A DNA stretch of 52,762 nucleotides from Candidatus Parcubacteria bacterium (GTDB taxonomy: Bacteria; Patescibacteriota; Minisyncoccia; UBA9983), in contig QZIU01000009.1 of NCBI GenBank assembly GCA_003599625.1, positions 1 through 52,762 on the forward strand, read 5' to 3'. This document shows, in pieces, positions 278 to 49,604 of the stretch (positions are counted from its first letter, which is position 1; every line of letters begins with the position of its first letter). A program made the position numbers and the translations under genes. The notes under the pieces are model-generated. The model made no database searches and was not told where the DNA came from. It saw only the letters and a list, made by a program, of their open reading frames with translations.

Positions 278-1153
278 CTATTTAGAAGTAATATCTTGAT
301 AAGAACCAATAAAGCGAGGGGGATTCAAAGATAAGCCAAGTTTCCTAAATTCCGACCAAGCATCCACCATTTTCTTGTCAGTGACATAGCCTTCAAATTC
401 CAATAAGAAAGTATATTCCCAGTGCTTTCCGGGTATAGGGCAGGGATATATGAGGAGCAAATTAATTTTCTTGTCAGAAAAAATACTCAGCGTTTTTGCC
501 AATGTACCGGGCATAGACTGTTCTAAATTGATTAAAAAACAAGTCTTATCTTTTCCTGTTTTATTAGCGTGCTCTTTACCTATGATCCAAAACCTTGTCT
601 TGCTATTTTTATGATCTGTTACTGACAGAGGATATATGCGTGTTAAGTTGTACATTTCACAAGCCTTGGATGATGCAATGACAACAATATCATGATCTGT
701 TGATGCTTCTTCAGCTGCAACTCCCGTTGAATCCCTGACCTCAACTATCAATTCCCTATTGTCTTCCCTCAACTGAGAAACAAACTCACTGCACTGTCTT
801 ATCGCAACTGCGTGAGAAAGCAGTTTTTTAGGCGGTTCTGAAATATTTTCTTTGCGAAGATAAAATAATTCTATCGGAACCACAGATTCCGCCCAGACTT
901 TCAAGCCAAGATGCCCATCCACATCTTCTATTGCTCTAATGGTTTCTGTCACGACACCATCTATTACATTTTCAATTGCAACTACGCCATAATTTACCTC
1001 CTTTTTACCAACCGCCAGACAAACCTCCTCATGACTCTTATATGCCATAAAATCAATACTGCTTTCCCCTTGTTTTTTCGCGAAAAAATCCTCAGCAGCT
1101 ATATATCCGAATGTGGACATATTTGGCCCCAAATAACCAACCTTCGTACTCAT
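278..1153 (-). CDS. pheA: Prephenate dehydratase (PDT + ACT domain), no chorismate mutase domain
   Basis: N-terminal YLGP..TF, GVVAIEN, SH.VA..QC, catalytic TRF (SKTRFWII), C-terminal ACT with WEYTF. ATGA overlap with the tyrS stop. Confidence 0.9.
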   Translation of the reverse strand: MSTKVGYLGPNMSTFGYIAAEDFFAKKQGESSIDFMAYKSHEEVCLAVGKKEVNYGVVAIENVIDGVVTETIRAIEDVDGHLGLKVWAESVVPIELFYLRKENISEPPKKLLSHAVAIRQCSEFVSQLREDNRELIVEVRDSTGVAAEEASTDHDIVVIASSKACEMYNLTRIYPLSVTDHKNSKTRFWIIGKEHANKTGKDKTCFLINLEQSMPGTLAKTLSIFSDKKINLLLIYPCPIPGKHWEYTFLLEFEGYVTDKKMVDAWSEFRKLGLSLNPPRFIGSYQDITSK

Positions 1154-2400
1154 TTAGTTTCTCCTTCTAAAATAAGGCGGTGATATTGTTTTTTTCCCCG
1201 CCGAATTATTACAGTAAAATTGTCAAAAAAACTTTCTTTGATTTCCAAATCCAGAGAATTGACTTTTTCCCCGTTTAAAGAAATTCCCCCTTGGCTGATT
1301 AATCTTCTTGCCTCAGACTTTGTTTTGCAAAAGCAAATTTCACACAATAAGTCGACTATCGGCAGACCTTCTTTAATTCTGGAAATTTCAATGCGACTCG
1401 TCGGAATAGATTCCAAATAATTTCCGAGGTTTGAAAATATTGTTTTGCCTGATTTTTCGGCTTTTATGGCCTCTTCTTGGCCATGAACAAGTTTGGTAAC
1501 TTCAAAAGCTAAAATTTCTTTTGCCACCCGAATTTCTTGCCCTTTAAGTTTTTTTAGTTTTACGACATCATCATGTGGCAAAAAAGTGAAAAGATTAAGG
1601 AATCTAATCACATCTTTATCGTCTGTATTAATCCAAAATTGATAAAAATCATAAGGCGATGTTTTTAGCGGATCAAGCCAAATAGTGCCTGCTTCTGTTT
1701 TACCCATCTTGTTGCCTCGAGCTGTTACAAGCAGAGGAAAAGTTAGACCATAAACTTTTTTACTCCGAATAATTCTTACGAGATTAATGCCAGCGATCAT
1801 GTTGCCCCATTGGTCATCACCACCCAATTGCAAAACGCAGTTATGTCTGTCAAATAAAACAAAAAAATCATAAGCCTGAAGAATTTGATAATTAAATTCT
1901 GTAAACGACAACCCTTCTTGCCTGTCCAATCTTTGTTTATATGATTCCGCTTTTATCATCTCGTTAACCTTAAAGTACCTGCCAATATCTCTCAGAAACT
2001 TTATATAGTTAAGATCTAGCAACCAATCTGCGTTATTAATAACAGTTCCGCTTTCACCGTCAAGAATTAAGTATTTCTTGAGTTGGGAAACAATTTTTGC
2101 GTTATTATTAGCAATTTCTTCGCTAGACATTACCCTCCTCATCTCGGTTTTTCCGCTGGGATCACCGATCATGGCGGTTCCGCCACCAATTATACAAACA
2201 GGAAAATGTCCAGCTTTCTGCAAATGAGCCATTGCCATAATTGGTAGCAAACTGCCGACATGCAAACTGTCAGCCGTCGGATCAAAGCCAACATAATAGA
2301 CAACTTTTTCTTCATTAAGTTTCTTAATCAACCCTTCATGATCTGAACATTGCTTAACAAAGCCTCTTTCTTTCAATACATCAAATAGATTACTATTCAA
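1150..2400 (-). CDS. tyrS: Tyrosine--tRNA ligase
   Basis: YVGFDPTADSLHVGS (HIGH), GMIGDPSGK-type motif, QLGGDDQWGN, KMGKT (KMSKS), C-terminal S4 domain. TTG start with AAGGAG Shine-Dalgarno. Confidence 0.97.
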   Translation of the reverse strand: MNSNLFDVLKERGFVKQCSDHEGLIKKLNEEKVVYYVGFDPTADSLHVGSLLPIMAMAHLQKAGHFPVCIIGGGTAMIGDPSGKTEMRRVMSSEEIANNNAKIVSQLKKYLILDGESGTVINNADWLLDLNYIKFLRDIGRYFKVNEMIKAESYKQRLDRQEGLSFTEFNYQILQAYDFFVLFDRHNCVLQLGGDDQWGNMIAGINLVRIIRSKKVYGLTFPLLVTARGNKMGKTEAGTIWLDPLKTSPYDFYQFWINTDDKDVIRFLNLFTFLPHDDVVKLKKLKGQEIRVAKEILAFEVTKLVHGQEEAIKAEKSGKTIFSNLGNYLESIPTSRIEISRIKEGLPIVDLLCEICFCKTKSEARRLISQGGISLNGEKVNSLDLEIKESFFDNFTVIIRRGKKQYHRLILEGETK

Positions 2401-13798: not shown

Positions 13799-14872
13799 CT
13801 ACTGGAATTGGGTGATGCGGATGCCGAGGAGGCGGATCAGTTTCTTTTTGGGATTCTTGCGGCTGTCGAGATATGGCATCAAAAGTTTTAGCGCTTCTTT
13901 TTTGAGAACTCCCTGAGAGTTTGCAGGTTCTTTCATCGTGTGGGCAGATGTCTTGGTTTCAAAATCGGAAAAACGGACAGTGATGCCAACGGTTTTAAAG
14001 CTTTTAAATTCGCTTCTTTTGAATCTTTCAAAAACTCTTTCGGCGGCTTTGGCCAGCCGCTCGAAAAGAAAATTACTCTCTAAGGTATCCTTCATGAAAG
14101 TTTCCTGCTCGCCTATGGATTTGGCCTCATATTCCGTCACCAGTTCCGTTTCCCCGATTCCGCGGGCTTTGTAATACAAATCGATTCCCCATTTGCCCAA
14201 TATCTCCTCGAGTTGATCTTTGGAAAATTTCTTGATGTCTTTTATTTTTTCTATCCCTTTTCCCTTGAGCAAGATCTCCGTCTTGGGACCAACGCCGGGC
14301 AAAGCCCTTGCCGGCATTTCCGCCAAAAAATCTTCGGCGTCTTTTTCTTCCACAATGGTAAGTCCGTCCGGCTTTTGGAATCCGGAGGCGATCTTGGCGA
14401 TAAGCTTATTGGGTCCGATTCCCACCGAAGCGGTGAGATTTTCTTTTTCGCGAATTTCCGCTTTTATCTTCTGGCAAACTTCTTTGGCTTTTTCGTAAGA
14501 ACCGGCATGAGAAAGATCAAAGTAGGCTTCGTCAATACTCGCCTCTTCCACGATTGGAGAATGCTTCCCGACTATTTCCATTATTTTCCTTGAAACGGCC
14601 CCGTACTTCGCGAAATCAACCTCGAGAAATATGACACCGGGCTTGCCTTCCTTCTTGGCTTTTTCCGAAAGCTTCCAGGCCTTGCTTATTGGCGTGGCGG
14701 AAAATATGCCATACTTTCTGGCCGCGTAATTTGCCGTTGATACGACTCCCCTCCCAGTGCCTCCCGCCGGATCGGAACCTACAACTATGGGCATCCCTTT
14801 AATACCCGGCCTATCACGTTCCTCAACGGCCGCAAAAAAAGCATCCATATCTATGTGCGCGATTATCTTCAT
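13799..14872 (-). CDS. dinB: DNA polymerase IV (Y family)
   Basis: HIDMDAFFAAVE, STANYAAR, SIDEAYFD, KIASGFQKPDG; little-finger domain ending IRLLGI. Confidence 0.95.
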   Translation of the reverse strand: MKIIAHIDMDAFFAAVEERDRPGIKGMPIVVGSDPAGGTGRGVVSTANYAARKYGIFSATPISKAWKLSEKAKKEGKPGVIFLEVDFAKYGAVSRKIMEIVGKHSPIVEEASIDEAYFDLSHAGSYEKAKEVCQKIKAEIREKENLTASVGIGPNKLIAKIASGFQKPDGLTIVEEKDAEDFLAEMPARALPGVGPKTEILLKGKGIEKIKDIKKFSKDQLEEILGKWGIDLYYKARGIGETELVTEYEAKSIGEQETFMKDTLESNFLFERLAKAAERVFERFKRSEFKSFKTVGITVRFSDFETKTSAHTMKEPANSQGVLKKEALKLLMPYLDSRKNPKKKLIRLLGIRITQFQ

Positions 14873-18857: not shown

Positions 18858-20111
18858 TTAGAAATTATTTATCACATCTCCTAAAGAAATTATTCTCGCT
18901 TCTTTCTCCCTCCTCCCCTTCACCTCCGCTCCGTTCGCCGCCAAAGTCTTCCCGCTCACCACGATTCTATACGGCAGCCCCATCAGATCGGCTTCAGCAA
19001 ATTTCTGCCCTGTCGTAACGCTTTCCCGATCATCATACAAAACTTCCACGTTCTTCCTTGCCAAAGAATTAAAAAGCAATTCTGCTTCCTTCTTCACTTC
19101 AGTATTGTCGCTTTTCAGCTCTATCAAATGTACTTTGAACGGGGCGACGGATTCCGGCCAGATGATTCCCTTTTCATCATTATTTATCTCGACGATCGTC
19201 CCCATCAATCTGCCCAGCCCGATGCCGTAGCAGCCCATCAAAACCGGTTTATTCTCGCCCTTTTCGTCCATATAATTAAGGTCGAACGGTTGGGAGAACC
19301 TATCTTTCAGTTTAAAGATATTCCCCACCTCGACGGCTTTTTCTTCTCTAAGATCATTGCTGCCGCACTGAGGACAAACAGGTTTTTCTTCCATGATCTC
19401 TTTATTTGCCGCCACATCGCATTTAGCGCAGATATAGATTATGTCCTCACCCGCCGAAGTAACGGTTTGATACTCATGCGAATATTTCGCGAAAGAACCT
19501 CCGGAGGCGAAGGTCAGATAAGTTTTATCGGCGATGCCGCATTTGTTGAAAATATTTTTATACCGCGGCTTCATGCTCTCGTAGTACTCTTCCATTTCTT
19601 TTTCGTTCCGATGAAAAGAATACAAATCCTTCATCGCGAATTCCCTTGCCCGCAAAATTCCGGACTTAGCCCGCTTCTCATCCCTGAACTTGTTTTGGAA
19701 CTGGAAAAGATAAAGAGGGAGATCTCTGTGGGACAAGTTGAACTTTTTCACCAACGGAGAAATTATTTCCTCGTGCGTCGGCCCGAGGGCTAATTCCATC
19801 TTCGTGTAATGGCTGACGAACCTGAACAAGGAATCCAATGTGTTCCAGCGTCCGGTTTTCTCCCAATTTTCCTTTGGGTGCAGCGACGGCATCAGCAATT
19901 CCTGCCCATCGGCTTCTATCATTTCTTCCCGAATTATATTTTCTATTTTTTTGAAAACGCGAAAGCCAAGCGGCAAGTAAGTATAAACTCCGGCCATTAA
20001 CTTATCGATAAAACCGCCTCTTATAAGAAGCCGCGCGTTTGCCGAAATTTCGTCTTTCGGAGCTTCTTTCAGGGTTCTGGAGAAAAGTTTGGATTGTTTC
20101 ATTCCAAGCAT
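18858..20111 (-). CDS. proS: Proline--tRNA ligase, short form
   Basis: LGPTHEE, KFRDEKR..GILRAREF.MKDLYSF, EVGNIFKLK, MGCYGIGLGR, anticodon-binding C-terminus; no INS domain. Confidence 0.93.
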   Translation of the reverse strand: MLGMKQSKLFSRTLKEAPKDEISANARLLIRGGFIDKLMAGVYTYLPLGFRVFKKIENIIREEMIEADGQELLMPSLHPKENWEKTGRWNTLDSLFRFVSHYTKMELALGPTHEEIISPLVKKFNLSHRDLPLYLFQFQNKFRDEKRAKSGILRAREFAMKDLYSFHRNEKEMEEYYESMKPRYKNIFNKCGIADKTYLTFASGGSFAKYSHEYQTVTSAGEDIIYICAKCDVAANKEIMEEKPVCPQCGSNDLREEKAVEVGNIFKLKDRFSQPFDLNYMDEKGENKPVLMGCYGIGLGRLMGTIVEINNDEKGIIWPESVAPFKVHLIELKSDNTEVKKEAELLFNSLARKNVEVLYDDRESVTTGQKFAEADLMGLPYRIVVSGKTLAANGAEVKGRREKEARIISLGDVINNF

Positions 20112-28106: not shown

Positions 28107-28703
28107 TCATAACAAATTGAATCGCCAAAGATAATCTCTGCAATGTTTGGCGTAATCAATACCGATCCGCTTTGAGGCTTCTATCTTTTTAGGCGATATT
28201 TTTAACCCTGAATCTTCTATCCATAAATCGCCTGTTTCAACATCCGATCCGTTAAATTTCTTATCTATGCCGAAATATCGGCAAACCCGCCCCGGCCCGT
28301 TTATTCCAACCTGGCGGCCTGACTGCCGACGAGGCAGGGTTGTAATAGTTTTCCATAAGTTGTTAACAGCTTTAGTCGAACTTTCATCGCTAAAAGACAT
28401 TACTCCCCTGATAAGCACAGCGGAAGGATATTCATCCATCTCGGTCACAATGTTGAGACAAAAGTACATCCCGTAGATCATATACACGTAGACCGTCCCC
28501 GCCTCTTTGTACAAAGTTTCCGTTCTTTTCGTCCTCCCCTTCGAAGCATGGCAAGCCAAATCGTCTTCGCCGCGATAAGCCTCCGTCTCAATTATAACGC
28601 CTCTCAAAATCTTATCGCCGTTTTTGACAACCAAAAATTTGCCAAGCAGATTCTTGGCGACTTTGATCGTGTTATCTTCAAAAAAAGACCTATTGAGTTT
28701 CAT
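28107..28703 (-). CDS. DNA-3-methyladenine glycosylase (MPG/AAG family)
   Basis: IIETEAY.G..D.ACH, YVYMIYGMY.CLNIV, NGPG, RIGIDYA. Confidence 0.92.
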   Translation of the reverse strand: MKLNRSFFEDNTIKVAKNLLGKFLVVKNGDKILRGVIIETEAYRGEDDLACHASKGRTKRTETLYKEAGTVYVYMIYGMYFCLNIVTEMDEYPSAVLIRGVMSFSDESSTKAVNNLWKTITTLPRRQSGRQVGINGPGRVCRYFGIDKKFNGSDVETGDLWIEDSGLKISPKKIEASKRIGIDYAKHCRDYLWRFNLL

Positions 28704-33071: not shown

Positions 33072-35585
33072 TCATCCGATCCTCAATAATCTTTGCCGTT
33101 CTATTCTTTCGATTGCCGCGGAAATATCATTTTTCTTTTCCAGAATCTCTCTCCACGGATCTCCTTTCTTTTCTATCCTCTGGCGGATGTTGAAAATATT
33201 GAAATCGGAAGGTTTTATTTTTCCACTCAACTCTTTCCAGACCAAAGGAGTCGAGACGGGCGCGCCGTCAAGCGGCCTGACGGAATAAGGGGCCGCGACC
33301 GTCTGGCCTTTTACATTCTGCAAATAATCGAGATAAACTCTGCCCCTTCTTCTGTCGGGAAGCCTCTCGAGGCTCGTGATCTCGGGAATCCGGCGGTAAG
33401 TCATATTGGCGATAATCTCGGCAAAATTCCTGCCTTGCTCATAAGTGTAATTTTCTTTCAGCGGGATGTAGATGTGAAGGCCTTTGGCTCCGGAAGTTTT
33501 GCACAATCCGAATATTCGCAGCTCATCCATGACCTTCTTCACCTCAAGAGCCACGGCCAAAACTTTGTCAAAATCCACCTCAAGCGGATCAAGATCAATA
33601 ACGACATGATCGGGACTGTCCGGAGAAAAATATCTGGAAAGCCATGGATGAATTTCGATGCAACCAAGATTAGCCATGTAGATAAGAGTCGCCCTGTTCT
33701 GGCACAGAAGATAGGAGATTTTCTTCTTTTCCGATTCAGCCCGAATATCGACGGTCTCAAGCCAGTCGGGAGAAATGCCCTTGTCTATGTCTTTGTGATA
33801 AAACGCTGGCTTTTCTATCCCCTCCGGAAATCGATGCATGGTTTCCGGTCTGTCTTTGATATAAGGCAGAATATGCGGCGCGATCTGATCGTAATAATTT
33901 ACCAGATCTTTTTTGGTGTACCCGTCTTTCGGCCAGTAAACTTTATCAAGATTGGTAAGAATGAGTTTCTTGCCATCGATCATAATCTCTTCTTCTTTTT
34001 CTTTAAGGCGATAATACCTGGGTCGCGGACGAGGCTCGCCGCCAATTAGCATAGAAAATTCTCTGACAACTTCCTTCGGGTCCTTATCTTCTCTTAATCC
34101 AATAAAAACTGGCTGCCTCATAACGCCATCCTTTGTCCATTCCCGAAATTTGATCTCGCATACGAGCTGCGGCTCAAGCCAAACTGCCGGTTCGTTTGTT
34201 TGCGGCGTTTCGATAAACGGAGAGTCCTCTCTTTTAAATCCGCTCATCTTTTCATAAAGTTCTTCTGCCGTTTTAGAATCAAAACCGGTCCCAACATGCC
34301 CGATGTATCTTAAATTATTATTCTCGTAAACCCCGAGGACTAGAGCGCCGAAATATCCTTGCCCCGCTCTTGGCAAAGTAAAACCGGCAATGACCGCTTC
34401 CTGTCTTTGCTCCGTTTTTATTTTTAACCAATCCGCGCTTCTTGCTCCCGACCGATAAGGACTGTTGAGATTCTTTGCCATCATGCCCTCCAAACCCTGC
34501 CGCCGGATCGCTTCAAAAAATCGCTGTCCTTTTTCTTCGACATAATCGGAAAGTTTAACGGAGGCAAGATCGTACTTGGAAAACAACAACCGCAAAAGTT
34601 CCCTCCTGTCTTTCAGGGCAAGTCTCCTGACATCTCGCCCGTTTAAAAAAAGCAGATCGAAAACAAAATATATCACTTGACCCTTCCGGTCGCGGCGATA
34701 ATCCTGAAGCGTCTGGAAGTCCGGTTTTCCTTCGTCATTCAATGCCACGATCTCTCCGTCCAAAACAACTCCTTCTTTAATTACTTCAAAGGAGGAAGCA
34801 ACCGTCGGATAATCTTCGTTCAACAACACATTTTTGCGGGAGTATAGTTTCGCTTTGCCGCCGGAAACGAATGCCAACGCCCGGTAACCATCCCGCTTCG
34901 GCTCGAATATCCAGTCTTTCTTGTCGAAGGCTCTATCGGCCAACTTGGCAAACATCGGCTTGACGCTTGCCGGTTCGGGAGGGCTTTCTTCGGAATTTGC
35001 CAAACCGACCTCCTCCGTTTCCACTTCTTCCACCGTTCTTCCGCTCTTTACCGATCTTTCATCAAACTTAATATTTTCATCGGCGTACTCGTCTCTTTTC
35101 TTGATCATCAGCCAGGCATTGTCTCCCCCGCGAGCCATTTTTGCCAGGGCGAATTCTCCTTGCAATTTTTTCCCCGCTAAAATTATCGTCAATCGGCCTT
35201 TATTTATGCTGTCCAAAACTTTCTCGTCAAAAGTTTTTCCCTTGCCGCTTTTTATTTCATAAGTTCCCTCATCCCATACTATCACCGGGCCAGCCCCGTA
35301 ATTTCCCTCCGGTATCACCCCTTCGAATGAGCGGTAATCGAGCGGATGATCTTCCACCATCATTGCCAACCTCTTGTCCGCCGGATTCATGGAGGGGCCT
35401 TTCGGCACCGCCCAGCTCTTCAAAACGCCGTCCGCTTCTATTCTGAAATCATAATGAAGCCTGGAAGCGGAATGTTTTTGGATCACGAAATGATATTCAT
35501 CCGCGACTTTCGGGCGGACAGGCTTTGCCGCCGGTTCGCGCGTTTTTTTGAAATTCCTTTTCCTGCCGTATTCTTCAAGGATCAT
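33072..35585 (-). CDS. ligD: DNA ligase D (phosphoesterase-ligase-polymerase)
   Basis: QKHSASRLHYDFR (PE), EPKRDGYR (ligase KxDG), DLDP and KTSGAKGLH (PrimPol). Confidence 0.96.
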   Translation of the reverse strand: MILEEYGRKRNFKKTREPAAKPVRPKVADEYHFVIQKHSASRLHYDFRIEADGVLKSWAVPKGPSMNPADKRLAMMVEDHPLDYRSFEGVIPEGNYGAGPVIVWDEGTYEIKSGKGKTFDEKVLDSINKGRLTIILAGKKLQGEFALAKMARGGDNAWLMIKKRDEYADENIKFDERSVKSGRTVEEVETEEVGLANSEESPPEPASVKPMFAKLADRAFDKKDWIFEPKRDGYRALAFVSGGKAKLYSRKNVLLNEDYPTVASSFEVIKEGVVLDGEIVALNDEGKPDFQTLQDYRRDRKGQVIYFVFDLLFLNGRDVRRLALKDRRELLRLLFSKYDLASVKLSDYVEEKGQRFFEAIRRQGLEGMMAKNLNSPYRSGARSADWLKIKTEQRQEAVIAGFTLPRAGQGYFGALVLGVYENNNLRYIGHVGTGFDSKTAEELYEKMSGFKREDSPFIETPQTNEPAVWLEPQLVCEIKFREWTKDGVMRQPVFIGLREDKDPKEVVREFSMLIGGEPRPRPRYYRLKEKEEEIMIDGKKLILTNLDKVYWPKDGYTKKDLVNYYDQIAPHILPYIKDRPETMHRFPEGIEKPAFYHKDIDKGISPDWLETVDIRAESEKKKISYLLCQNRATLIYMANLGCIEIHPWLSRYFSPDSPDHVVIDLDPLEVDFDKVLAVALEVKKVMDELRIFGLCKTSGAKGLHIYIPLKENYTYEQGRNFAEIIANMTYRRIPEITSLERLPDRRRGRVYLDYLQNVKGQTVAAPYSVRPLDGAPVSTPLVWKELSGKIKPSDFNIFNIRQRIEKKGDPWREILEKKNDISAAIERIERQRLLRIG

Positions 35586-35609: not shown

Positions 35610-36386
35610 TTAAGGCGAAGGTTTCGTCTTCTCCAAACTGGCCTTCAACATCTTAAGGAGATCTTCGGCCCTGGTGGGAACGGGCAATTCTTTCGAGGCG
35701 GGAACGATCATTTCTCCTTTGGCTTTCTTCTCGATTATCTCTCTCAGCTCGCCGGAATAAGTGTCATGATATTTTTCCGGTTCGAACGGCCCGGATAGAT
35801 TTTCTATAAGTTTTAACGCCGCTTCGACCTCGCTTTCGATAAATTCTTCTTTCGGCAGCTTGAGAGAAGCGGGGTCTCTTATCTGATCGGAGTATCTTAA
35901 TTTGTGCAAGATCAACAAATTAGCGTCCGGCTTGATGACGCACAAGATTTCTTTATTCCGCAAAACGAATTTTCCGATAGCCGCTTTCTTCGACCTCTTC
36001 AGGGCTTCTCTCATCAAGGTGTAAGCTTTTTCCGCCCCCTTGTCCGGCTCAAGATAATACGGCTTCTCGTAATATTTGCTTTCCACTTCGTGATCGTCCG
36101 CGAAATTCGATATATCTATCGTCTTTGTCTTTCGCACATCCACACTGTCGAAATCTTCCCGAGTAAGAATGACGTAATTCCCTTTCTTGTACTCAAAACC
36201 TTTGACAAGATCTTCATAAGAAACTTCCCGCCCGTCTTTGGAGCAAATCCTCGCGTATCTGATCGGATACGAATCCTCGCGGTGAAGCAAATGAAATTGA
36301 AACTCCCTTTCTTCGGCAGCGCTGTATAATTTAATAGGTATATTGACAAGGCCAAAACTTATCGATCCGCTCCATATGTCACGCAT
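35610..36386 (-). CDS. ku: Ku protein (NHEJ)
   Basis: W.GSISFGLVNIPIKLYSA, KGFEY, KPYYL. Start reset to ATG 36386. Confidence 0.96.
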   Translation of the reverse strand: MRDIWSGSISFGLVNIPIKLYSAAEEREFQFHLLHREDSYPIRYARICSKDGREVSYEDLVKGFEYKKGNYVILTREDFDSVDVRKTKTIDISNFADDHEVESKYYEKPYYLEPDKGAEKAYTLMREALKRSKKAAIGKFVLRNKEILCVIKPDANLLILHKLRYSDQIRDPASLKLPKEEFIESEVEAALKLIENLSGPFEPEKYHDTYSGELREIIEKKAKGEMIVPASKELPVPTRAEDLLKMLKASLEKTKPSP

Positions 36387-36511
36387 ATTCAATACCCGCC
36401 CCCGAAGCGGATACAAAAGAGGTAACTCCTCGCGGAAAATATTGGTATTATTTTAATATATTATTCTGATTCCACCGCATAACCCTGATAAAGGGGGGGA
36501 TAGCAAAGAAA

Positions 36512-39936: not shown

Positions 39937-40350
39937 CTATCTAGTATTATCTACTATCTTTATGAATTCCTCTATGTCTTTTATGTCTCCCTGCAATATC
40001 TGATAAACAAGATCATAATTTACTTTCTCGTAGTCGTGAGCAACTATGTTTCTAAACCCCGTCATGCCGATCATTTTTTCCGTAAGGTTTTGGTCTATAA
40101 CCCCTTCTTCGTTAAGAATATGAAAACTTTCGCTAAGTGTGGATGGTTTGCGAAATTTTTTATAAGCGATCACCGCCTCTGCCAAATCTATAGTGGCTTG
40201 CGACACCAAATAAAGATATCTCTCTACCGCTCCTCTTATATCAATGTTGCTTTCAATCTCTTCCCTGGAATATTTTTTATATCTATCCAAAATTTTAAGA
40301 TATTTTCTTATGGAGCTTATTTTGTTTTCTATAACAACGGGATTGCTCAT
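39937..40350 (-). CDS. hepT: HEPN ribonuclease toxin (DUF86/HepT)
   Basis: RX4HXY motif RNIVAHDY. Confidence 0.88.
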   Translation of the reverse strand: MSNPVVIENKISSIRKYLKILDRYKKYSREEIESNIDIRGAVERYLYLVSQATIDLAEAVIAYKKFRKPSTLSESFHILNEEGVIDQNLTEKMIGMTGFRNIVAHDYEKVNYDLVYQILQGDIKDIEEFIKIVDNTR

Positions 40351-40351
40351 A

Positions 40352-40744
40352 TTAGGCTTTTGTTAAGTTATATTTTGATAAGATAGTTCTAAAATCAAAA
40401 TATTCATTCAAAATCTTTGGCTCGACTAAAATCTTATACGGTTCCAGCTCGTAAATCAGCCTTCCTTCTTTAATAATATTATACTTTACTTCCGGGCTTT
40501 TGATCAGGTCGAGAATAACTATGTCCAATTTGTCTGTCTTCAGCTCTCTGCTTATCTTATCTTGCAAAGAAAATTTGACTTTGAAAATTTTGCCGGTATC
40601 CCGCTCATCAAGATAAAAAGCAAAGTCGTAATCACTGAGCGGCCCGCTGTCGCCCCTGGCTTTTGAGCCGAAGAAATAGGCCAGTTTTATTTCCGGGTAA
40701 GATTTGATTATATTGACTATTTTTTCAATTTTATCATTTTCCAT
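40352..40744 (-). CDS. mntA: Minimal nucleotidyltransferase antitoxin
   Basis: GSX10DXD (GSKARGDSGPLSDYD); directly upstream of hepT. Confidence 0.88.
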   Translation of the reverse strand: MENDKIEKIVNIIKSYPEIKLAYFFGSKARGDSGPLSDYDFAFYLDERDTGKIFKVKFSLQDKISRELKTDKLDIVILDLIKSPEVKYNIIKEGRLIYELEPYKILVEPKILNEYFDFRTILSKYNLTKA

Positions 40745-41535: not shown

Positions 41536-44301
41536 TTAGAAATTATATTTTCTTCTTATCTCTTCCTCGACTTGGCTCCTCGGCGCCCCATATCTCGCCA
41601 GCGAGAGCATGGCGGCATCGCGTCCGCGTTCCGGATCTCCTTTTTTGAAAGGCAAAGTTTTGATGTTGAACGGCCTTGCGGACTGTCCTTCTATGAGGAG
41701 CTTCAAGTAAGCGTTGTAGTTGTCTATATTCATAAGATCGTTTGGCCCGAAAACCGGCTCGAATTGCTTGGCTAGAAATTCGGCATCTTCCGCGCCAATT
41801 CTGAAGGAACACATGGAACCGACGTTTCCAAAAACCGCCTTCTTGATTCCCTCCTCCAGTTGTCCGATGAACTGATGGGCGATTATCAGATCCAGCCTGT
41901 ACTTCCTGGCCTCGGAAAGGATGGTGGCGATGGAATCGGTGGTAACATTTTGGAATTCGTCTATGTACAAATAGAAATCGTTTCTCTCGCTTTCCGGAAT
42001 ATCGACTCGCGAAAGCGCGGCCATCAAAAGCTTGCCGACGATTATCAGACCGATCAAATTGGAGTTGATGTCTCCCAATCGCCCTTTGGAAAGATTTATC
42101 AGCAGGATCTTCTTTTCATCCATGACTTTTCTGAAATTAAAAGAGGATTTTTCTTGCGCGATGATCGGCCTCATGATGTCGTTGCCAAGGAAGTTGTCGA
42201 ATTTGCTGGTGATGTAAGGAACCATGTTTTGCAAAGAAGCCTCGCCTCCGGCTTTTTCCGCCACGTCTCTCCAGAACAATTTAACAACCGGATTGTTGCA
42301 TCGGGACAGTTTGTGGTCGCGGAATTCTTTGTTACTGAGAACTCTGGCGATCTCAAATAAGGTATTGCCCGACTCCGGATCCTCCATAACAAGCAGAGCG
42401 GAGTTTCTGAAATACTGTTCGAACATCGGCCCGCCAGTCGCCTTCATGTCGAAAAGTTTGTTGAAGATTCCCAACAACTCATTTACTATAAATGTCTTCT
42501 GCTCCGGATAATTGGGGTCGTATTCCAGCATGTTCAGGCCCATCACCCTGTCCATTTTCCCGGGATCGAAATAGATCAGATCGTCCACTCTTTCAACCGG
42601 GATCCTGGCGAGGATTTCTTCAAGATCGGAACCGTGCGGATCTATATAGCAAACCCCTTTACCCTGCTCGATGTCTTGGACGATCATATTCTTGAGCAAA
42701 ACTGATTTACCTGTTCCCGTCTGGCCGATCAGATAAAGATGCCTTCTGCGGTCGTCTTCTCTCATGTAAATATCGGATTCTTCGCCCCTATAAAGATTTT
42801 TGCCGAGCAATGTTCCCGCCTGGGGCAGATTTAGCGGAGGGGGCGCGTCTTTGGCTTTGACATACTTCAATTGGGAAATGGTCGTGATTCCTCTCGGAAA
42901 ATGGAATATCGTGGAAATTTCCGCCGTATTAAGATAAACGGCTTCTTTTTTGTCGAACAGCCGGAAAGAAAATTTATAGAAAAGATCCTCAAGTTCTTTC
43001 CCCATCGCCTCGCGCCATTTGAGACTGTTGCCTTGCGCTTCAGTGAATTGCAAAATGGAACTTTCAATTTCTTTCAGGATCCTGTTCGATTTTTCCGGAT
43101 CCTCCGAGGAGACAAGGATTCTTAGATTTGCCGCCAAAAGCGGCCGGGATGCTTTCTCCTCCACCATCTTGGCAAGACTTTCGTTGACCGGCTTTTCCTT
43201 CTCATTTTTTCGCTCGTTTTTCGGATCTTCTTCTTTTTTATGATCATCGGAAGATCTGAAAAGAAAATCGTCGAACACTGAAAGAATGTCGAATCCGGTC
43301 ACCTTGGCTTTCTTGAGAGCTTCGGGGAGCTTCTCGCCTTTTCTAAGCTCATCAGCCGTCTTTTTTGTCTTTTTAAGATAAGAAGGATCAGCCGGACCCA
43401 AGACCACCTGCAAAGCCGCCCCCTCCCCCATCTTATGAAGCTTGGAAAAGGCGTTGATTATGACAAGCAAAGGATCGACTTCGAACTTGTCGTAAGTTCT
43501 CAGCGGTAAAACATAATGGGTCTTCAAGCTAATGATCGCGCCCGCGCTGGCTCCGCCGGGCCTGAAGATGTTGTAGTCCTCTTTGCGTTCTTCGATCTTG
43601 GAATTCGGAAAAAGAGCCGTGATCTGTTTCTCCAGCAAATGACTCTTGTTTCTTGGCACGGCGGCGTAAAAAACTATCTCCTCGCCGATCGTCGGCAAAC
43701 CCACCTCCAGCGAGAAATACGGATTTTCTCCATCCTGCTGGATGATCATCATGCCGCTGTAAAACTGCTCCATCGCGGCAATGAACTCTTTGAAGGTTTT
43801 CTCCCTGCCGCCTTCTTTTTGCGCTTCTTCGCGGGGCAGGCTGATCTCGTAAAGCGCCGCGCTCATGGCCTGAGAAATAGGCTTGGCTAATTTTTCTTTA
43901 TAACCGATCTTGACGTAAAATTGAATTAACGCCCGGTGAAGATCGTCTTCCAGGTGGGGGTTATTGAGATTTTTAGCCACGGTAAGGGCGTTCAAAATGC
44001 CTTTTTCTTCGGCCAAAGCCAGAAGTTCTTCGATCTTGGCGTCATGCTCTTCCGCCGGAAGATTAAGAAGCTTCGCGACAAGACTTTCTTTTTCTTTGTC
44101 CGATATTCGGTACTTTTCCGTCAGAACGGTTTCCGGCTTGGAGGCGGCATGCCGGTAAAAAACTTCCTTTGCCGGTTCTCCCGATTCCGGAACTTTCTCC
44201 TTGCCGCTCTCCACCTCGAGTTTCTTCTGCTCGTAATGGCTCTTCAGCCACTCCAATTCCTCCCGCGGCGAATTGAATTTTTGCTCAACATTCGGTTGCA
44301 T
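41536..44301 (-). CDS. VirD4/TraG/HerA-like P-loop ATPase
   Basis: HLYLIGQTGTGKS, YIDPHG, YIDEFQN, SEARKY, HQFIGQL. TATAAT at 44310-44315. Confidence 0.85.
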   Translation of the reverse strand: MQPNVEQKFNSPREELEWLKSHYEQKKLEVESGKEKVPESGEPAKEVFYRHAASKPETVLTEKYRISDKEKESLVAKLLNLPAEEHDAKIEELLALAEEKGILNALTVAKNLNNPHLEDDLHRALIQFYVKIGYKEKLAKPISQAMSAALYEISLPREEAQKEGGREKTFKEFIAAMEQFYSGMMIIQQDGENPYFSLEVGLPTIGEEIVFYAAVPRNKSHLLEKQITALFPNSKIEERKEDYNIFRPGGASAGAIISLKTHYVLPLRTYDKFEVDPLLVIINAFSKLHKMGEGAALQVVLGPADPSYLKKTKKTADELRKGEKLPEALKKAKVTGFDILSVFDDFLFRSSDDHKKEEDPKNERKNEKEKPVNESLAKMVEEKASRPLLAANLRILVSSEDPEKSNRILKEIESSILQFTEAQGNSLKWREAMGKELEDLFYKFSFRLFDKKEAVYLNTAEISTIFHFPRGITTISQLKYVKAKDAPPPLNLPQAGTLLGKNLYRGEESDIYMREDDRRRHLYLIGQTGTGKSVLLKNMIVQDIEQGKGVCYIDPHGSDLEEILARIPVERVDDLIYFDPGKMDRVMGLNMLEYDPNYPEQKTFIVNELLGIFNKLFDMKATGGPMFEQYFRNSALLVMEDPESGNTLFEIARVLSNKEFRDHKLSRCNNPVVKLFWRDVAEKAGGEASLQNMVPYITSKFDNFLGNDIMRPIIAQEKSSFNFRKVMDEKKILLINLSKGRLGDINSNLIGLIIVGKLLMAALSRVDIPESERNDFYLYIDEFQNVTTDSIATILSEARKYRLDLIIAHQFIGQLEEGIKKAVFGNVGSMCSFRIGAEDAEFLAKQFEPVFGPNDLMNIDNYNAYLKLLIEGQSARPFNIKTLPFKKGDPERGRDAAMLSLARYGAPRSQVEEEIRRKYNF

Positions 44302-47448: not shown

Positions 47449-48732
47449 TTATCTTCTTACTTCCCAATCGGATTTGGCGTCGAGAGCGGCGAAGATTCTT
47501 TCCATTATGGAATTAACTTCTTCGTCCTTGAGAGTTCTGCCGGGCGACTGAAAGATGAGATGAAAAGCCAGACTTTTTTGTTCGTCGTTTTCATAGATGT
47601 CGAATAGATCGGTTTCCACAAGAAGTTCCCCCGCGGATGACTCAATAACGCCGAGGACATTTTCCACCTTCTCGAAATATGGAACAAAGACCGCAACATC
47701 CCGAACGATGGCCGGATACTTCGAAACCGGGACATATTCCAAATCCTCGTCGGCGATCTTTATGAGTTCCTCGAAGTTAAGTTCGAAAAAGTTATGGTCG
47801 ATCGCTCCAATATCGGAATTGCCAATTCTTATATCGGCCAAATTCGCTTCGCCCTCCTCGTAATAAAAATCGGTTATCCCCAACCCGGTCAATATCGCGT
47901 CCACCGTCCCCTTCATGGCGTAAAATCCGTCTTTTTCTTTTTTGCTTTGACTTATCGCGGCGGCCAAAGACAGAGTTTCTCCGCCAGCGGGAAAGGTCGA
48001 CCCTACCTCAAAAATCTTGACCTCCTTAAAATTTTTGCTGTTTTCTTTTACTACGTTCACCAACCCCTCCGAAAGCTTCGTTCTTAAAAATTTCTTGTCG
48101 CTTGAAGCGGGTTTATAAACTTCAAAAACGCCATTCCGGGCGAAAGAATAATTGTAAACCTCCGAAAATCCCATACCTGCCAAAATATTCCTGACTGCTT
48201 CGGCAAAAAACAGGATGTCGTTCCGTTTCGGAGGTAAAATGGTCGCCTCCGGCGCGATTTCAGGCACTTTTTCGTACCCGTAAATACGGACAATTTCTTC
48301 CAAAACATCTTCCTTTATCGAAACATCGGGCCTGAAGTCCGGAATTTGAACAACAATTCCTTCCTTGCCCGGTTTGATCGCGAAGCCGAGCCGGGAAAGA
48401 ATATTCTCGACTTCTTCCTTTGGAATATCGATGCCGATTATTTTCTTGGCCTCTGAAAATTTTACTTCAACGGCGGCGGGATAATTTTTTGCGGCGGGCA
48501 GATTTTTTGGCTCAACCTTAAGGATCGCGGCAATGTCCCTGATCGCTCCAAGATGATCGATAAAATCAAAGGCTCTGTTTGGTAAAACTTTAACATCGAA
48601 AACATAATCCCCTTCAGTCTCCTCGACCCCTTCCACTTCTTGAGAATGCATGGTCAAAAGATCCGCCAGCTTTTCCGGCTCCGGAAGTTTTTCCTCAAAA
48701 TATGATTGCAGCCAAGAATACCGTACCTTCAT
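47449..48732 (-). CDS. pheT: Phenylalanine--tRNA ligase beta subunit, reduced (no B2, no B3/B4)
   Basis: MKVRYSWL, LPNR..D..H.G.IRD, B5 motif RPDV..KEDVLEEIVRIYGY, B8 SKYPAIVRDVA; only 427 aa. Confidence 0.92.
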   Translation of the reverse strand: MKVRYSWLQSYFEEKLPEPEKLADLLTMHSQEVEGVEETEGDYVFDVKVLPNRAFDFIDHLGAIRDIAAILKVEPKNLPAAKNYPAAVEVKFSEAKKIIGIDIPKEEVENILSRLGFAIKPGKEGIVVQIPDFRPDVSIKEDVLEEIVRIYGYEKVPEIAPEATILPPKRNDILFFAEAVRNILAGMGFSEVYNYSFARNGVFEVYKPASSDKKFLRTKLSEGLVNVVKENSKNFKEVKIFEVGSTFPAGGETLSLAAAISQSKKEKDGFYAMKGTVDAILTGLGITDFYYEEGEANLADIRIGNSDIGAIDHNFFELNFEELIKIADEDLEYVPVSKYPAIVRDVAVFVPYFEKVENVLGVIESSAGELLVETDLFDIYENDEQKSLAFHLIFQSPGRTLKDEEVNSIMERIFAALDAKSDWEVRR

Positions 48733-48750
48733 AAATTAAAAATTTAAAAT

Positions 48751-49584
48751 TTAAAATTGATTCAAAAACCTCATATCTCCCGAATAAAACAGCCTCACGT
48801 CGTTGATCTTGTGCCTTATCATCGCCAACCGATCCATTCCGAAAGCAAACGCAAAACCCTGCCAGTCTTGCCCATTTAACTTGACGCTTTCCAAAACTTT
48901 CGGATGCACCATTCCCGCCCCCGCTATTTCCATCCATTTGCCTTTGAACTTCATATCTACCTCCACTCCCGGCTCTACGAACGGGAAAAAACTGGACCGA
49001 AATCTTATCTCTATGTCGTTATCGTCAAAAAACCTCTGAAGAAATATTTTCAGAACAGCCTTCAAATTTGCAAGATTCGTCTTCTTGTCTATCATCAGAC
49101 CTTCTATTTGGTAAAATTGAATCTCGTGTGTCGCGTCCGTAGCTTCGTTTCTGAAAACTCTTCCCGGCACGACTATCCTGAAGGGCGGCTGATGGCTTTC
49201 CATATAATGTATCTGGACGGAAGAGGTGTGCGTCCTGAGAAGAAGCTTATCATCCGGTTTGACTTCATGAGTCTTGCCGCCTGTCAAGCCAACTTCAAGC
49301 GAAGGCAATTCGATGCCGTTGACCGGCACGCCCTTTTTAAGCGGATTCTTGATCCAAAAAGTATCCTGCATGCCTCTTGCCGGATGCCCCGCCGGGATAT
49401 TGAGCGCGTCGAAGTTGAAGAACTCTAAATCCAATTCCGGACCAACCACAAGTTCAAATCCCATACTCGAAAAGATATCAAGCGCTCTGTTGATACTTTG
49501 CGTCAAAGGGTGGATATGGCCGGCTTCGCGCTTCACTCCGGGAGCCGAAATGTCTATGAAATTTTTAGCGTTTTTCTGAGACAT
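48751..49584 (-). CDS. pheS: Phenylalanine--tRNA ligase alpha subunit, N-terminally short
   Basis: GHIHPLTQ, NFDALNIP..HPAR.MQDTF, LRTHTS, FPFVEPG, GAGMVHP, AFGMDR. Confidence 0.96.
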   Translation of the reverse strand: MSQKNAKNFIDISAPGVKREAGHIHPLTQSINRALDIFSSMGFELVVGPELDLEFFNFDALNIPAGHPARGMQDTFWIKNPLKKGVPVNGIELPSLEVGLTGGKTHEVKPDDKLLLRTHTSSVQIHYMESHQPPFRIVVPGRVFRNEATDATHEIQFYQIEGLMIDKKTNLANLKAVLKIFLQRFFDDNDIEIRFRSSFFPFVEPGVEVDMKFKGKWMEIAGAGMVHPKVLESVKLNGQDWQGFAFAFGMDRLAMIRHKINDVRLFYSGDMRFLNQF

Positions 49585-49595
49585 TGTTTGGGTAA

Positions 49596-49604
49596 ATTAT
49601 ATCA
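49596..49604 (-). promoter_or_regulatory. Extended -10 (TGnTATAAT) upstream of pheS
   Basis: TGATATAAT on the minus strand, 11 nt before the ATG, overlapping the upstream stop codon. Confidence 0.55.

Follow-up and report, generated by a model that had tools for sequence, protein, structure and literature searches.

A minimised two-subunit PheRS without B2, B3/B4 and the alpha coiled coil in a CPR bacterium, probably lacking post-transfer editing

PheRS is a textbook example of a large modular synthetase. The pheS-pheT locus in the 52.7-kb stretch of DNA analysed here (referred to as the window) encodes a much smaller version of it, with an alpha subunit of 277 aa and a beta subunit of 427 aa, compared with 327-350 aa and 785-795 aa in canonical bacterial (alpha-beta)2 enzymes (T. 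thermophilus, 1PYS/1B70; E. coli, 3PCO). This raises the question of whether the locus encodes a working enzyme and, if so, how such an enzyme deals with tyrosine when its editing domain is missing. The original prediction, made from the DNA alone, described a single minimal PheRS and offered three possible consequences, namely statistical Phe-to-Tyr mistranslation, a more selective active site or a trans-editing factor. The background it drew on, that B3/B4 edits Tyr- and m-Tyr-tRNAPhe, that the alpha coiled coil helps tRNA binding and that editing was lost in mitochondria and Mycoplasma, agrees with the literature (PMC3275996, PMC3553970, PMC12449066).

The two genes form a canonical operon, in which pheT lies directly downstream of pheS on the same strand after a spacer of 18 nt, as read from the ORFs of the window (Table 1). 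The neighbouring genes are intact. In three relatives the same order is kept, with alpha subunits of 246-289 aa, beta subunits of 422-426 aa and gyrB downstream. A search for tRNA-Phe in the window and in the relatives' loci found none in either. The window enzyme shares with canonical bacterial PheRS the two-gene operon, motifs 1-3 and the Phe pocket of alpha, and the B1, B5, catalytic-like B6/B7 and B8 anticodon-binding domains of beta; its best sequence matches in the PDB are bacterial PheRS chains (beta, E 4e-36; alpha, E 1e-72). It differs from them in having no alpha coiled coil (~85 aa), no beta B2 domain (EMAP/OB fold) and no beta B3/B4 domain (editing).

Table 1. Features of the pheS-pheT locus, in window coordinates.
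Feature	Position	Strand	Evidence
pheS, 277 aa; PheRS alpha subunit reduced to the catalytic module	48751..49584	-	ORF call, Pfam, TIGR00468, alignment
pheT, PheRS beta subunit, 427 aa, B1-B5-B6/B7(CLM)-B8	47449..48732	-	ORF call, Pfam, phmmer, MAFFT
Stop codon (TAA) ending the upstream glycosyltransferase gene; lies in the pheS frame, four codons ahead of its ATG	49597..49599	-	direct reading and translation
PheS loop insertion of 33 aa (aa 80-112), flanked by motif 1 (DTFW) and LLRTHTS	49249..49347	-	gap vs E. coli 161/163
PheS motif 3 GFAFAFG; Ala245 = E. coli A294, Ala247 = E. coli G296	48838..48858	-	column counts
PheT B1 domain, aa 1-79 (halves 1-39 and 40-79, which flank B2 in canonical enzymes)	48496..48732	-	alignment, AF2
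PheT linker AAKNYPAA, aa 80-87, in place of B3/B4	48472..48495	-	MAFFT gap
PheT B5 domain, aa 88-153	48274..48471	-	PF03484
PheT catalytic-like module B6/B7, aa 157-296, tetramer-interface module	47845..48264	-	PF17759
PheT B8 ferredoxin-fold anticodon-binding domain, aa 337-426	47455..47724	-	PF03147

Analysis of PheT with Pfam identifies three domains well above their cutoffs: B5 (82.8 bits vs 28.6, covering profile positions 1-67 of 67), tRNA_synthFbeta/CLM (76.7 bits vs 22.4) and FDX-ACB/B8 (80.2 bits vs 31.1, profile positions 1-94 of 94). The second of these, the catalytic-like module, is part of the four-helix-bundle interface (PMC3275996). Neither B3_4 (PF03483) nor tRNA_bind/B2 (PF01588) gave a Pfam match even at E<=1, and a custom B3/B4 HMM scored -1.8 bits on the pheT ORF. 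Aligned to the T. thermophilus beta chain with phmmer, aa 82-420 correspond to residues 398-775, preceded by two weak matches (aa 1-34 to 1-33 and aa 42-89 to 153-201). The domain boundaries were located in a MAFFT alignment of the window PheT with 30 B3/B4-bearing CPR relatives. The two halves of B1 are joined directly at aa 39/40, with a gap of 100 columns where the relatives P0075 and P0076 carry B2, and a gap of 285 columns follows aa 79, where the 8-residue linker replaces ~205-240 aa of B3/B4 ahead of B5. Both B2 and the ~220-aa B3/B4 domain are excised at domain boundaries. The original prediction had both losses, the direct B1 junction and the exact length of the ORF right, and its spacing of ~15 residues between B1 and B5 was about right.

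No dedicated Pfam model matched B1; its motifs MKxSYNWLQSYF...KLPxPEKLAELLTxHSxEVE and DxxxDIxVLPNRAxD are conserved between the window PheT and the long CPR relatives, and the AF2 model reaches block-mean pLDDT values of 70-92 over aa 1-87. The top Foldseek matches of this model are bacterial beta chains, with low TM-scores (0.22-0.33) that are due to poor prediction of the CLM region (aa 186-252) and of the inter-domain packing; the model is used to confirm the family, and beyond the confidence in B1 no domain-level claim rests on it. Against the family model TIGR00472 (pheT_bact) the protein scores 250.9 bits, below the cutoff of 402.65, because of the missing domains; the match is split into three stretches, the best of which aligns aa 85-426 with positions 405-798 of 798.

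The alpha subunit is reduced as well. Its sole Pfam domain is tRNA-synt_2d (PF01409, aa 10-277, E 3e-92), and it scores 304.5 bits against TIGR00468 (cutoff 237.45), covering profile positions 50-322 of 324. No Pfam match to the Phe_tRNA-synt_N coiled coil (PF02912) was obtained. The protein aligns to E. coli alpha residues 88-161 and 163-326, the alignment opening at aa 6 (E. coli 88), and its N-terminus, MSQKNAKNFIDISAPGV, falls near E. coli residue 83. Due to the in-frame TAA upstream of the ATG, an N-terminal extension is impossible, and the coiled coil is missing as the original prediction had it. Two candidates for a replacement within alpha or beside it were rejected. The loop insertion between motif 1 and LLRTHTS varies in length from 5 to 38 aa, is unconserved and occurs with short and long beta subunits alike. 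In three relatives a small ORF lies just upstream of pheS and could have been a split-off coiled coil; these ORFs are related neither to one another, nor to the coiled-coil HMM, nor to the window.

The same short beta architecture is found in ~60 protein clusters, 49-62% identical, from Parcubacteria/Paceibacteria. As these clusters were drawn from independent NCBI, JGI, ENA and Logan assemblies, the architecture is neither a product of chance nor of mis-assembly. Over 38 short-form sequences (52-62% identity to the window PheT), 87 columns spread across all four retained domains are invariant, which indicates that the short form is under purifying selection. A profile search of genome contigs with a mixed alignment of short and long PheT returned, among the matches listed, B3/B4-bearing loci only, which served as control pheS/pheT pairs; a metagenome search with the window protein as single query returned two loci of the short clade only. 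In the phylogenetic tree, the short-form clade of the window PheT is recovered with a bootstrap of 100/100, whereas all short forms together are recovered as one group in 0/100 replicates and the two short forms P0367 and P0380 pair in 100/100. This implies at least three independent deletions, so that B3/B4 was lost independently in at least two further CPR lineages.

The nearest relatives are other CPR/Patescibacteria PheRS without B2 and coiled coil, with beta subunits 43-50% identical to that of the window and 610-710 aa long, and alpha subunits of 238-291 aa that lack PF02912 as in the window. Unlike the window enzyme, they keep B3/B4, and the editing residues N254, H265, F267, A312, G318 and E334 are intact in 15/15 of the nearest B3/B4-bearing relatives, which indicates that a functional domain was removed. 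Loss of the coiled coil and of B2 is widespread in CPR, also alongside B3/B4-bearing beta subunits, whereas loss of B3/B4 is limited to a few clades. Alpha truncation, B2 loss and B3/B4 loss are three distinct events that differ greatly in how widely they occur; the truncations that made up the predicted minimal PheRS hold, while their attribution to a single event does not.

Two known systems help to place this enzyme. Monomeric mitochondrial PheRS (human FARS2, 3CMQ/3TUP), which has been described as derived from a bacterial ancestor that lost domains on a massive scale (PMC3275996), also has no editing domain, coiled coil or B2, and also keeps the catalytic module and a B8-type domain. It is, however, a single chain in which the CAM is fused to B8, whereas the window enzyme has two subunits and retains B1, B5 and the catalytic-like module; its alpha and beta subunits score 100.6 and 27.7 against TIGR00469 (pheS_mito), for which the cutoff is 258.35. 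The window PheRS looks like an intermediate stage of mitochondrial-type reduction, reached independently. The PheRS of Mycoplasma mobile shares with it the bacterial heterotetramer type, a small genome and the lack of post-transfer editing, with Phe->Tyr mistranslation as the expected consequence (PMC3553970). There, a 'defunct', point-mutated B3/B4 is retained, whereas in the window PheT the whole domain is gone, and its sister lineages carry no sign of earlier decay at the editing site.

The reading we favour is that the cell would charge tRNAPhe with the product of this pheS-pheT pair, a two-subunit PheRS minimised in nature and presumably active as an (alpha-beta)2 tetramer. Alpha would act as a bare class II catalytic module, and beta would keep just the parts for building the heterotetramer and reading the anticodon. 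Since PheT physically lacks the B3/B4 site for post-transfer editing, Tyr-tRNAPhe and m-Tyr-tRNAPhe cannot be hydrolysed in cis. Judging from the sequences, this PheRS probably works without Tyr/m-Tyr-tRNAPhe editing, relying on discrimination at the synthetic site alone and tolerating occasional Phe-to-Tyr errors. Fidelity would then rest on a Phe pocket that is the same as in editing-competent relatives, and Phe-to-Tyr (and m-Tyr) substitution would probably occur at a low level that the cell tolerates, presumably elevated over that of an editing enzyme. For a sense of scale, the M. mobile PheRS without editing has a Phe:Tyr specificity of ~440-480 and its proteome contains Phe->Tyr errors, while the specificity of the E. 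coli enzyme is ~14-fold above 480 (PMC3553970). Reduced genomes have often lost editing (PMC10057733, PMC7373986), and the ProRS in the window likewise lacks its INS editing domain. Against this reading, the ThrRS of relatives keeps the editing-associated tRNA_SAD domain, which indicates that editing was not abandoned wholesale. A CPR bacterium with a small genome and a probably anaerobic life could afford such substitution, since m-Tyr formed by oxidation should be rare there if the lifestyle we assume is correct. Tolerated mistranslation appears to be the best supported of the three consequences originally proposed.

The alternatives part from this reading at different points. The most radical is that the locus does not encode the housekeeping enzyme at all: it could be a pseudogene in decay, a paralogue or an error of assembly, and a full-length pheT would lie elsewhere. 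Fragmented pheT genes are indeed common in public metagenome assemblies and the TIGR00472 score lies under the equivalog cutoff, but a deletion that is in frame, domain-precise and common to all these clusters, the invariant columns, the operon kept in window and relatives and the intact neighbouring genes make this very improbable. A second alternative accepts the enzyme and places editing elsewhere in the genome, in a free-standing deacylase (a split-off B3/B4, a protein like CtdA or one of unrelated fold) that clears Tyr/m-Tyr-tRNAPhe. Some bacteria do encode B3/B4 homologues as separate proteins (CtdA; PMC12449066, PMC12268091), the window is a small part of a genome that is probably many times larger, and bacteria with INS-less ProRS often use trans factors (PMC3973320). 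In the sequence searched, no candidate for such a factor came up. The best B3/B4 HMM hit in six frames of the window had E=0.68, the ~50 window ORFs scanned contain no B3_4, YbaK/ProX, AlaX or Dtd domain, the +-10 kb flanks of pheT in three relatives contain no B3/B4, and the matches listed in a database search with the sister-group B3/B4 were <=356 aa long and resembled pheT fragments, so that no free-standing gene of the kind originally suggested was seen there or among the top database matches inspected. Three B3_4-only ORFs on long contigs (P0495, P0401 and P0462) were checked in context and are frameshift pieces of full-length pheT, next to pheS, gatA and gyrB genes that are broken too. 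CtdA, a free-standing B3/B4-fold deacylase, would be the obvious model for such a replacement; none was detected in the sequence searched, and CtdA acts on canavanyl-tRNAArg and fails to rescue the m-Tyr sensitivity of editing-dead E. coli, so it is no substitute for PheRS m-Tyr editing (PMC12449066). We consider trans editing improbable.

It is likewise unlikely, if somewhat easier to envisage, that fidelity is compensated within the enzyme, with the synthetic site, or tRNA-dependent pre-transfer or kinetic proofreading, being selective enough to avoid extra mistranslation, as was proposed for yeast mitochondrial PheRS. Mitochondrial PheRS reportedly relies on higher cognate specificity (PMC7373986), and substitutions away from the pocket shifted Phe/Tyr discrimination of the M. 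mobile enzyme 3-6 fold (PMC3553970), so that residues at such positions can tune it and identity of pocket residues need not mean equal selectivity. Five PheS substitutions set the short-beta clade apart from all others (E. coli numbering: 116 I->A, 218 I->T, 219 S->N, 237 E->D, 262 K->F), but all of them lie outside the Phe pocket and could equally repair surfaces that once touched B3/B4. Within the pocket, W159, H/Q169, S171, F248, F250, V/T251, A294 and others are identical between the partners of short and long beta subunits. The specificity residue A294, the Phe/Tyr determinant, is Ala in 15/15 short-form, 36/36 long CPR and 57/57 other PheS sequences, and the FPF(T/V)EP motif is conserved in the window PheS. 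Two residues further on, the window PheS carries an Ala at the otherwise invariant G296 (Gly in 14/15, 36/36 and 57/57, respectively); found in this sequence alone, it cannot explain a clade-wide trait. The canonical pocket thus offers no support for the more selective active site that had been suggested.

Tolerated mistranslation in a minimal enzyme can be set within a broader picture, which we hold tentatively: CPR bacteria may have lost, by clean deletion and at least three times, a PheRS editing domain that still worked, arriving at a stable minimal two-subunit PheRS between heterotetramer and mitochondrial monomer, with neither cis nor trans proofreading of Tyr/m-Tyr and a statistical proteome at Phe codons. 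Editing would then have been lost recurrently, with an intact site removed along domain borders, in organisms other than intracellular parasites, and measurable Phe->Tyr/m-Tyr substitution is predicted in metaproteomes of short-beta lineages. Short PheT proteins score too low for the NCBIfam equivalog cutoff, and 'hypothetical protein' is the annotation of some relatives, so that the architecture is relevant to automated annotation and to estimates of completeness. An (alpha-beta)2-type enzyme of this kind would represent a functional core smaller than any characterised bacterial PheRS and a ready scaffold for structural work and engineering, for example with non-canonical Phe analogues free of editing interference. 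If true, the repeated excision would show which PheRS modules tRNAPhe charging can spare, namely the coiled coil, B2 and B3/B4.

The pheS and pheT genes lie exactly where the original prediction placed them, as adjacent ORFs on the minus strand separated by 18 nt. In PheT, a Pfam scan recognized three of the expected modules and, with the threshold relaxed to E<=1, still matched neither B3_4 (the editing domain B3/B4) nor tRNA_bind (B2). The NCBIfam model pheT_bact gives 250.9 bits, below its cutoff of 402.65, and its best stretch (aa 85-426) corresponds to profile positions 405-798 of 798. When PheT was compared with solved structures using phmmer, residues 82-420 aligned to 398-775 of the Thermus thermophilus beta subunit, while residues 1-34 and 42-89 aligned weakly to 1-33 and 153-201. 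Aligned by MAFFT to 30 relatives that carry B3/B4, PheT has the halves of B1 fused at aa 39/40, the point where B2 is inserted in the homologs P0075 and P0076, and after aa 79 the roughly 205-240 residues of B3/B4 are replaced by an eight-residue linker (AAKNYPAA) preceding B5. The predicted absence of B2 and B3/B4 and the direct joining of the B1 segments are thus confirmed, and the domain anatomy, as read from this alignment, is unambiguous. The AlphaFold2 model is confident over aa 1-87 (block means 70-92), and the Foldseek matches are beta chains of bacterial PheRS (best E 5e-24).

Features of the window and of the PheRS subunits
Feature	Position	Strand	Description
Prephenate dehydratase	278..1153	-	PDT and weak ACT
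TyrRS	1150..2400	-	416 aa, normal
DNA polymerase IV	13799..14872		side observation
ProRS	18858..20111	-	417 aa, bacterial type, without INS (Ala-tRNAPro) editing insertion
Methylpurine glycosylase	28107..28703		side observation
LigD	33072..35585	-	837 aa, complete: phosphoesterase, ligase, primase-polymerase
Ku	35610..36416	-	beside LigD
HepT-like RNase and Pol-beta/MNT nucleotidyltransferase	39937..40744	-	toxin-antitoxin pair
921-aa protein	41536..44301		weak TraD/TrwB coupling-protein similarity alone
pheT	47449..48732	-	ORF, 427 aa
B5	PheT aa 88-153		Pfam
Catalytic-like module	PheT aa 157-296		Pfam
FDX-ACB/B8 anticodon-binding domain	PheT aa 337-426		Pfam
pheS	48751..49584	-	ORF, 277 aa
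PheS Ala247	48844..48846	-	Gly to Ala at Ec G296

PheS consists of the class II core alone (Pfam), its alignment to the E. coli alpha subunit beginning at residue 88 (query aa 6). Since the TAA of the upstream gene lies in frame four codons ahead of the ATG, no N-terminal coiled coil is hidden upstream, as had been predicted. Among the best 120 PheS homologs, 105 lack the coiled coil (PF02912) and measure 238-291 aa, and short PheS adjoins B3/B4-bearing pheT in fetched CPR loci (for example L001, L011, L083, L088 and L096); the two also appear, from contigs of equal length, to lie together in the protein pairs P0228/P0062, P0180/P0067 and P0213/P0076. Loss of the coiled coil and of B2, which is present in 2 of the best 120 PheT homologs, is therefore a widespread CPR trait, while loss of B3/B4 is restricted. 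The truncations of the predicted minimal PheRS hold; they are the sum of three independent reductions rather than a single event. A 33-aa loop insertion (PheS aa 80-112) is hypervariable across CPR and shows no relation to beta type.

The B3/B4-less PheT is a real feature and not a broken gene. About 60 protein clusters from NCBI, JGI, ENA and Logan assemblies (385-445 aa, 49-62% identity) share its Pfam architecture, the named ones belonging to Candidatus Pacebacteria, Parcubacteria GW2011_GWB1_43_8 and Patescibacteria, and an alignment of 38 short forms contains 87 invariant columns spread over all retained domains. Three relatives on 57-165-kb contigs have the same operon (alpha 246-289 aa, beta 422-426 aa) with gyrB downstream. 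Truly broken pheT genes in error-prone assemblies, unlike the short form, consist of overlapping ORF pieces amid equally fragmented neighbors. Relatives (loci L108-L113) keep a pheS-pheT-gyrB ... thrS-dnaE neighborhood that the window does not share, its pheT having serS and dprA as flanking genes.

The next-nearest PheT homologs (43-50% identity, 610-710 aa) carry B3_4 and lack B2. Searching 1.84 billion representatives all-against-all with HMMER added four full-length short forms of 412-425 aa and 38-39% identity: P0320, from a Candidatus Parcubacteria MAG, P0248, P0367 and P0380. In a neighbor-joining tree (183 sequences, 396 shared columns, 100 bootstraps), the window clade is monophyletic (100/100) with proteins of 633, 741 and 788 aa as its sister group, P0367 pairs with P0380 (100/100), and the divergent short forms join the window clade in no bootstrap tree, nor do all short forms ever group together (0/100). 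This topology implies at least three, and probably four, independent B3/B4 deletions with identical domain boundaries. Of the E. coli editing-site residues (PMC12449066), N254, H265, F267, A312, G318 and E334 are present in all 15 nearest B3/B4-bearing relatives, with R or K at R244 and Y or F at Y255, so B3/B4 was excised as an apparently working module, without prior decay of the Mycoplasma kind. In another CPR lineage, PheT-derived ORFs carry NlpC/P60 similarity: P0395 (313 aa, 100-kb contig) combines B3_4 with PF00877, and P0242 (478 aa) shows, by eye, a short N-terminal B5-like stretch and an NlpC/P60-like motif, its remainder aligning to aa 121-427 of the window PheT. These could be domain insertions in pheT or gene-calling artefacts.

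How the organism copes without cis editing admits several readings. That an unseen trans factor clears mischarged tRNAPhe seems rather unlikely from the part of the genome covered: a B3/B4 HMM built from 30 CPR relatives had no credible match in any of the window's six translated frames (best E=0.68), and Pfam/NCBIfam scans found no B3_4, YbaK/ProX, AlaX or Dtd in about 50 window ORFs, nor in the 10 kb on either side of pheT in three relatives. A database search with the sister B3/B4 domain returned, among the matches listed, nothing but apparent pheT fragments, and CtdA, the known free-standing B3/B4 protein, does not substitute for PheRS editing (PMC12449066). Three free-standing candidates examined in genomic context (L114, L115 and L116, on ENA long-read-style contigs) are frameshift fragments of full-length pheT, with pheS, gatA and gyrB likewise split; such B3_4-only public proteins, some annotated "PheT-related protein, partial", should not be taken for free-standing editing factors. 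Compensation by a more selective synthetic site, also raised originally, seems unlikely, as the canonical pocket positions, Ec 294 (Ala) and FPF(V/T)EP among them, are all the same in 15 PheS partnered by short beta as in those partnered by long beta (36 from CPR and 57 others). In its favor, five clade-specific substitutions outside the pocket (Ec 116, 218, 219, 237 and 262) may tune discrimination, or may have mended the surface once its contacts with B3/B4 were gone. Ala247, in motif 3 (GFAFAFG) two residues past the Phe/Tyr specificity Ala, could narrow the pocket; Gly is invariant here in the 107 other PheS compared, and the closest relative (75% identity) also lacks Ala.

By elimination and precedent, the best explanation, which we hold to be reasonably likely, is that pheS-pheT encodes an active minimal PheRS, predicted to lack editing, whose Phe-to-Tyr/m-Tyr mischarging would be tolerated. 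The original prediction thus stands in its observation and in part of its interpretation, with mischarging itself predicted. The enzyme belongs to the bacterial PheRS lineage: alpha passes the pheS equivalog cutoff, beta retains four of six canonical modules and the operon is canonical; beta falls below its equivalog cutoff and lacks two domains, B2 and B3/B4. Mitochondrial PheRS resembles it in the parts discarded but is a single-chain monomer of another family. M. mobile PheRS resembles it in expected phenotype, with Phe:Tyr specificity of about 440-480 and proteome-level Phe-to-Tyr errors, but retains a defunct editing domain (PMC3553970), whereas here B3/B4 is excised. Our full-text literature search, whose coverage excluded the survey of Melnikov et al. 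(2018), met with no account of B3/B4 being deleted as a whole domain in bacterial heterotetrameric PheRS or in CPR.

ProRS is a second window synthetase without a cis-editing domain: it matches the INS-less "exception" model NF008979 (437 aa) end to end and NF006625 in two stretches, the best of which pairs aa 4-242 with profile positions 1-238 of 559. The window contains no YbaK/ProX-type trans factor. ThrRS of the L108-L113 relatives (576-590 aa) keeps tRNA_SAD, with no TGS match in precomputed Pfam lists; editing is therefore trimmed selectively, not wholesale. Elsewhere, LigD and Ku form a full NHEJ module, and relative L112 has a HepT/MNT pair close to its pheT as well. The minus strand of the window carries almost all of the credible genes, and over the 52.7 kb the cumulative GC skew declines monotonically, consistent with a single replichore whose genes strongly favor one strand.

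The prephenate dehydratase gene overlaps the upstream TyrRS gene by 4 nt, and a Phe-biosynthesis step beside TyrRS may matter for the Phe:Tyr ratio inside the cell and hence for mischarging risk. That reduced genomes can lose editing is well documented (PMC10057733, PMC7373986, PMC4014445). According to two studies, E. coli PheRS editing chiefly counters m-Tyr formed under oxidative stress (PMC4066437; PMC10057733), from which we infer that its benefit to a CPR organism, probably an anaerobe, may be small.
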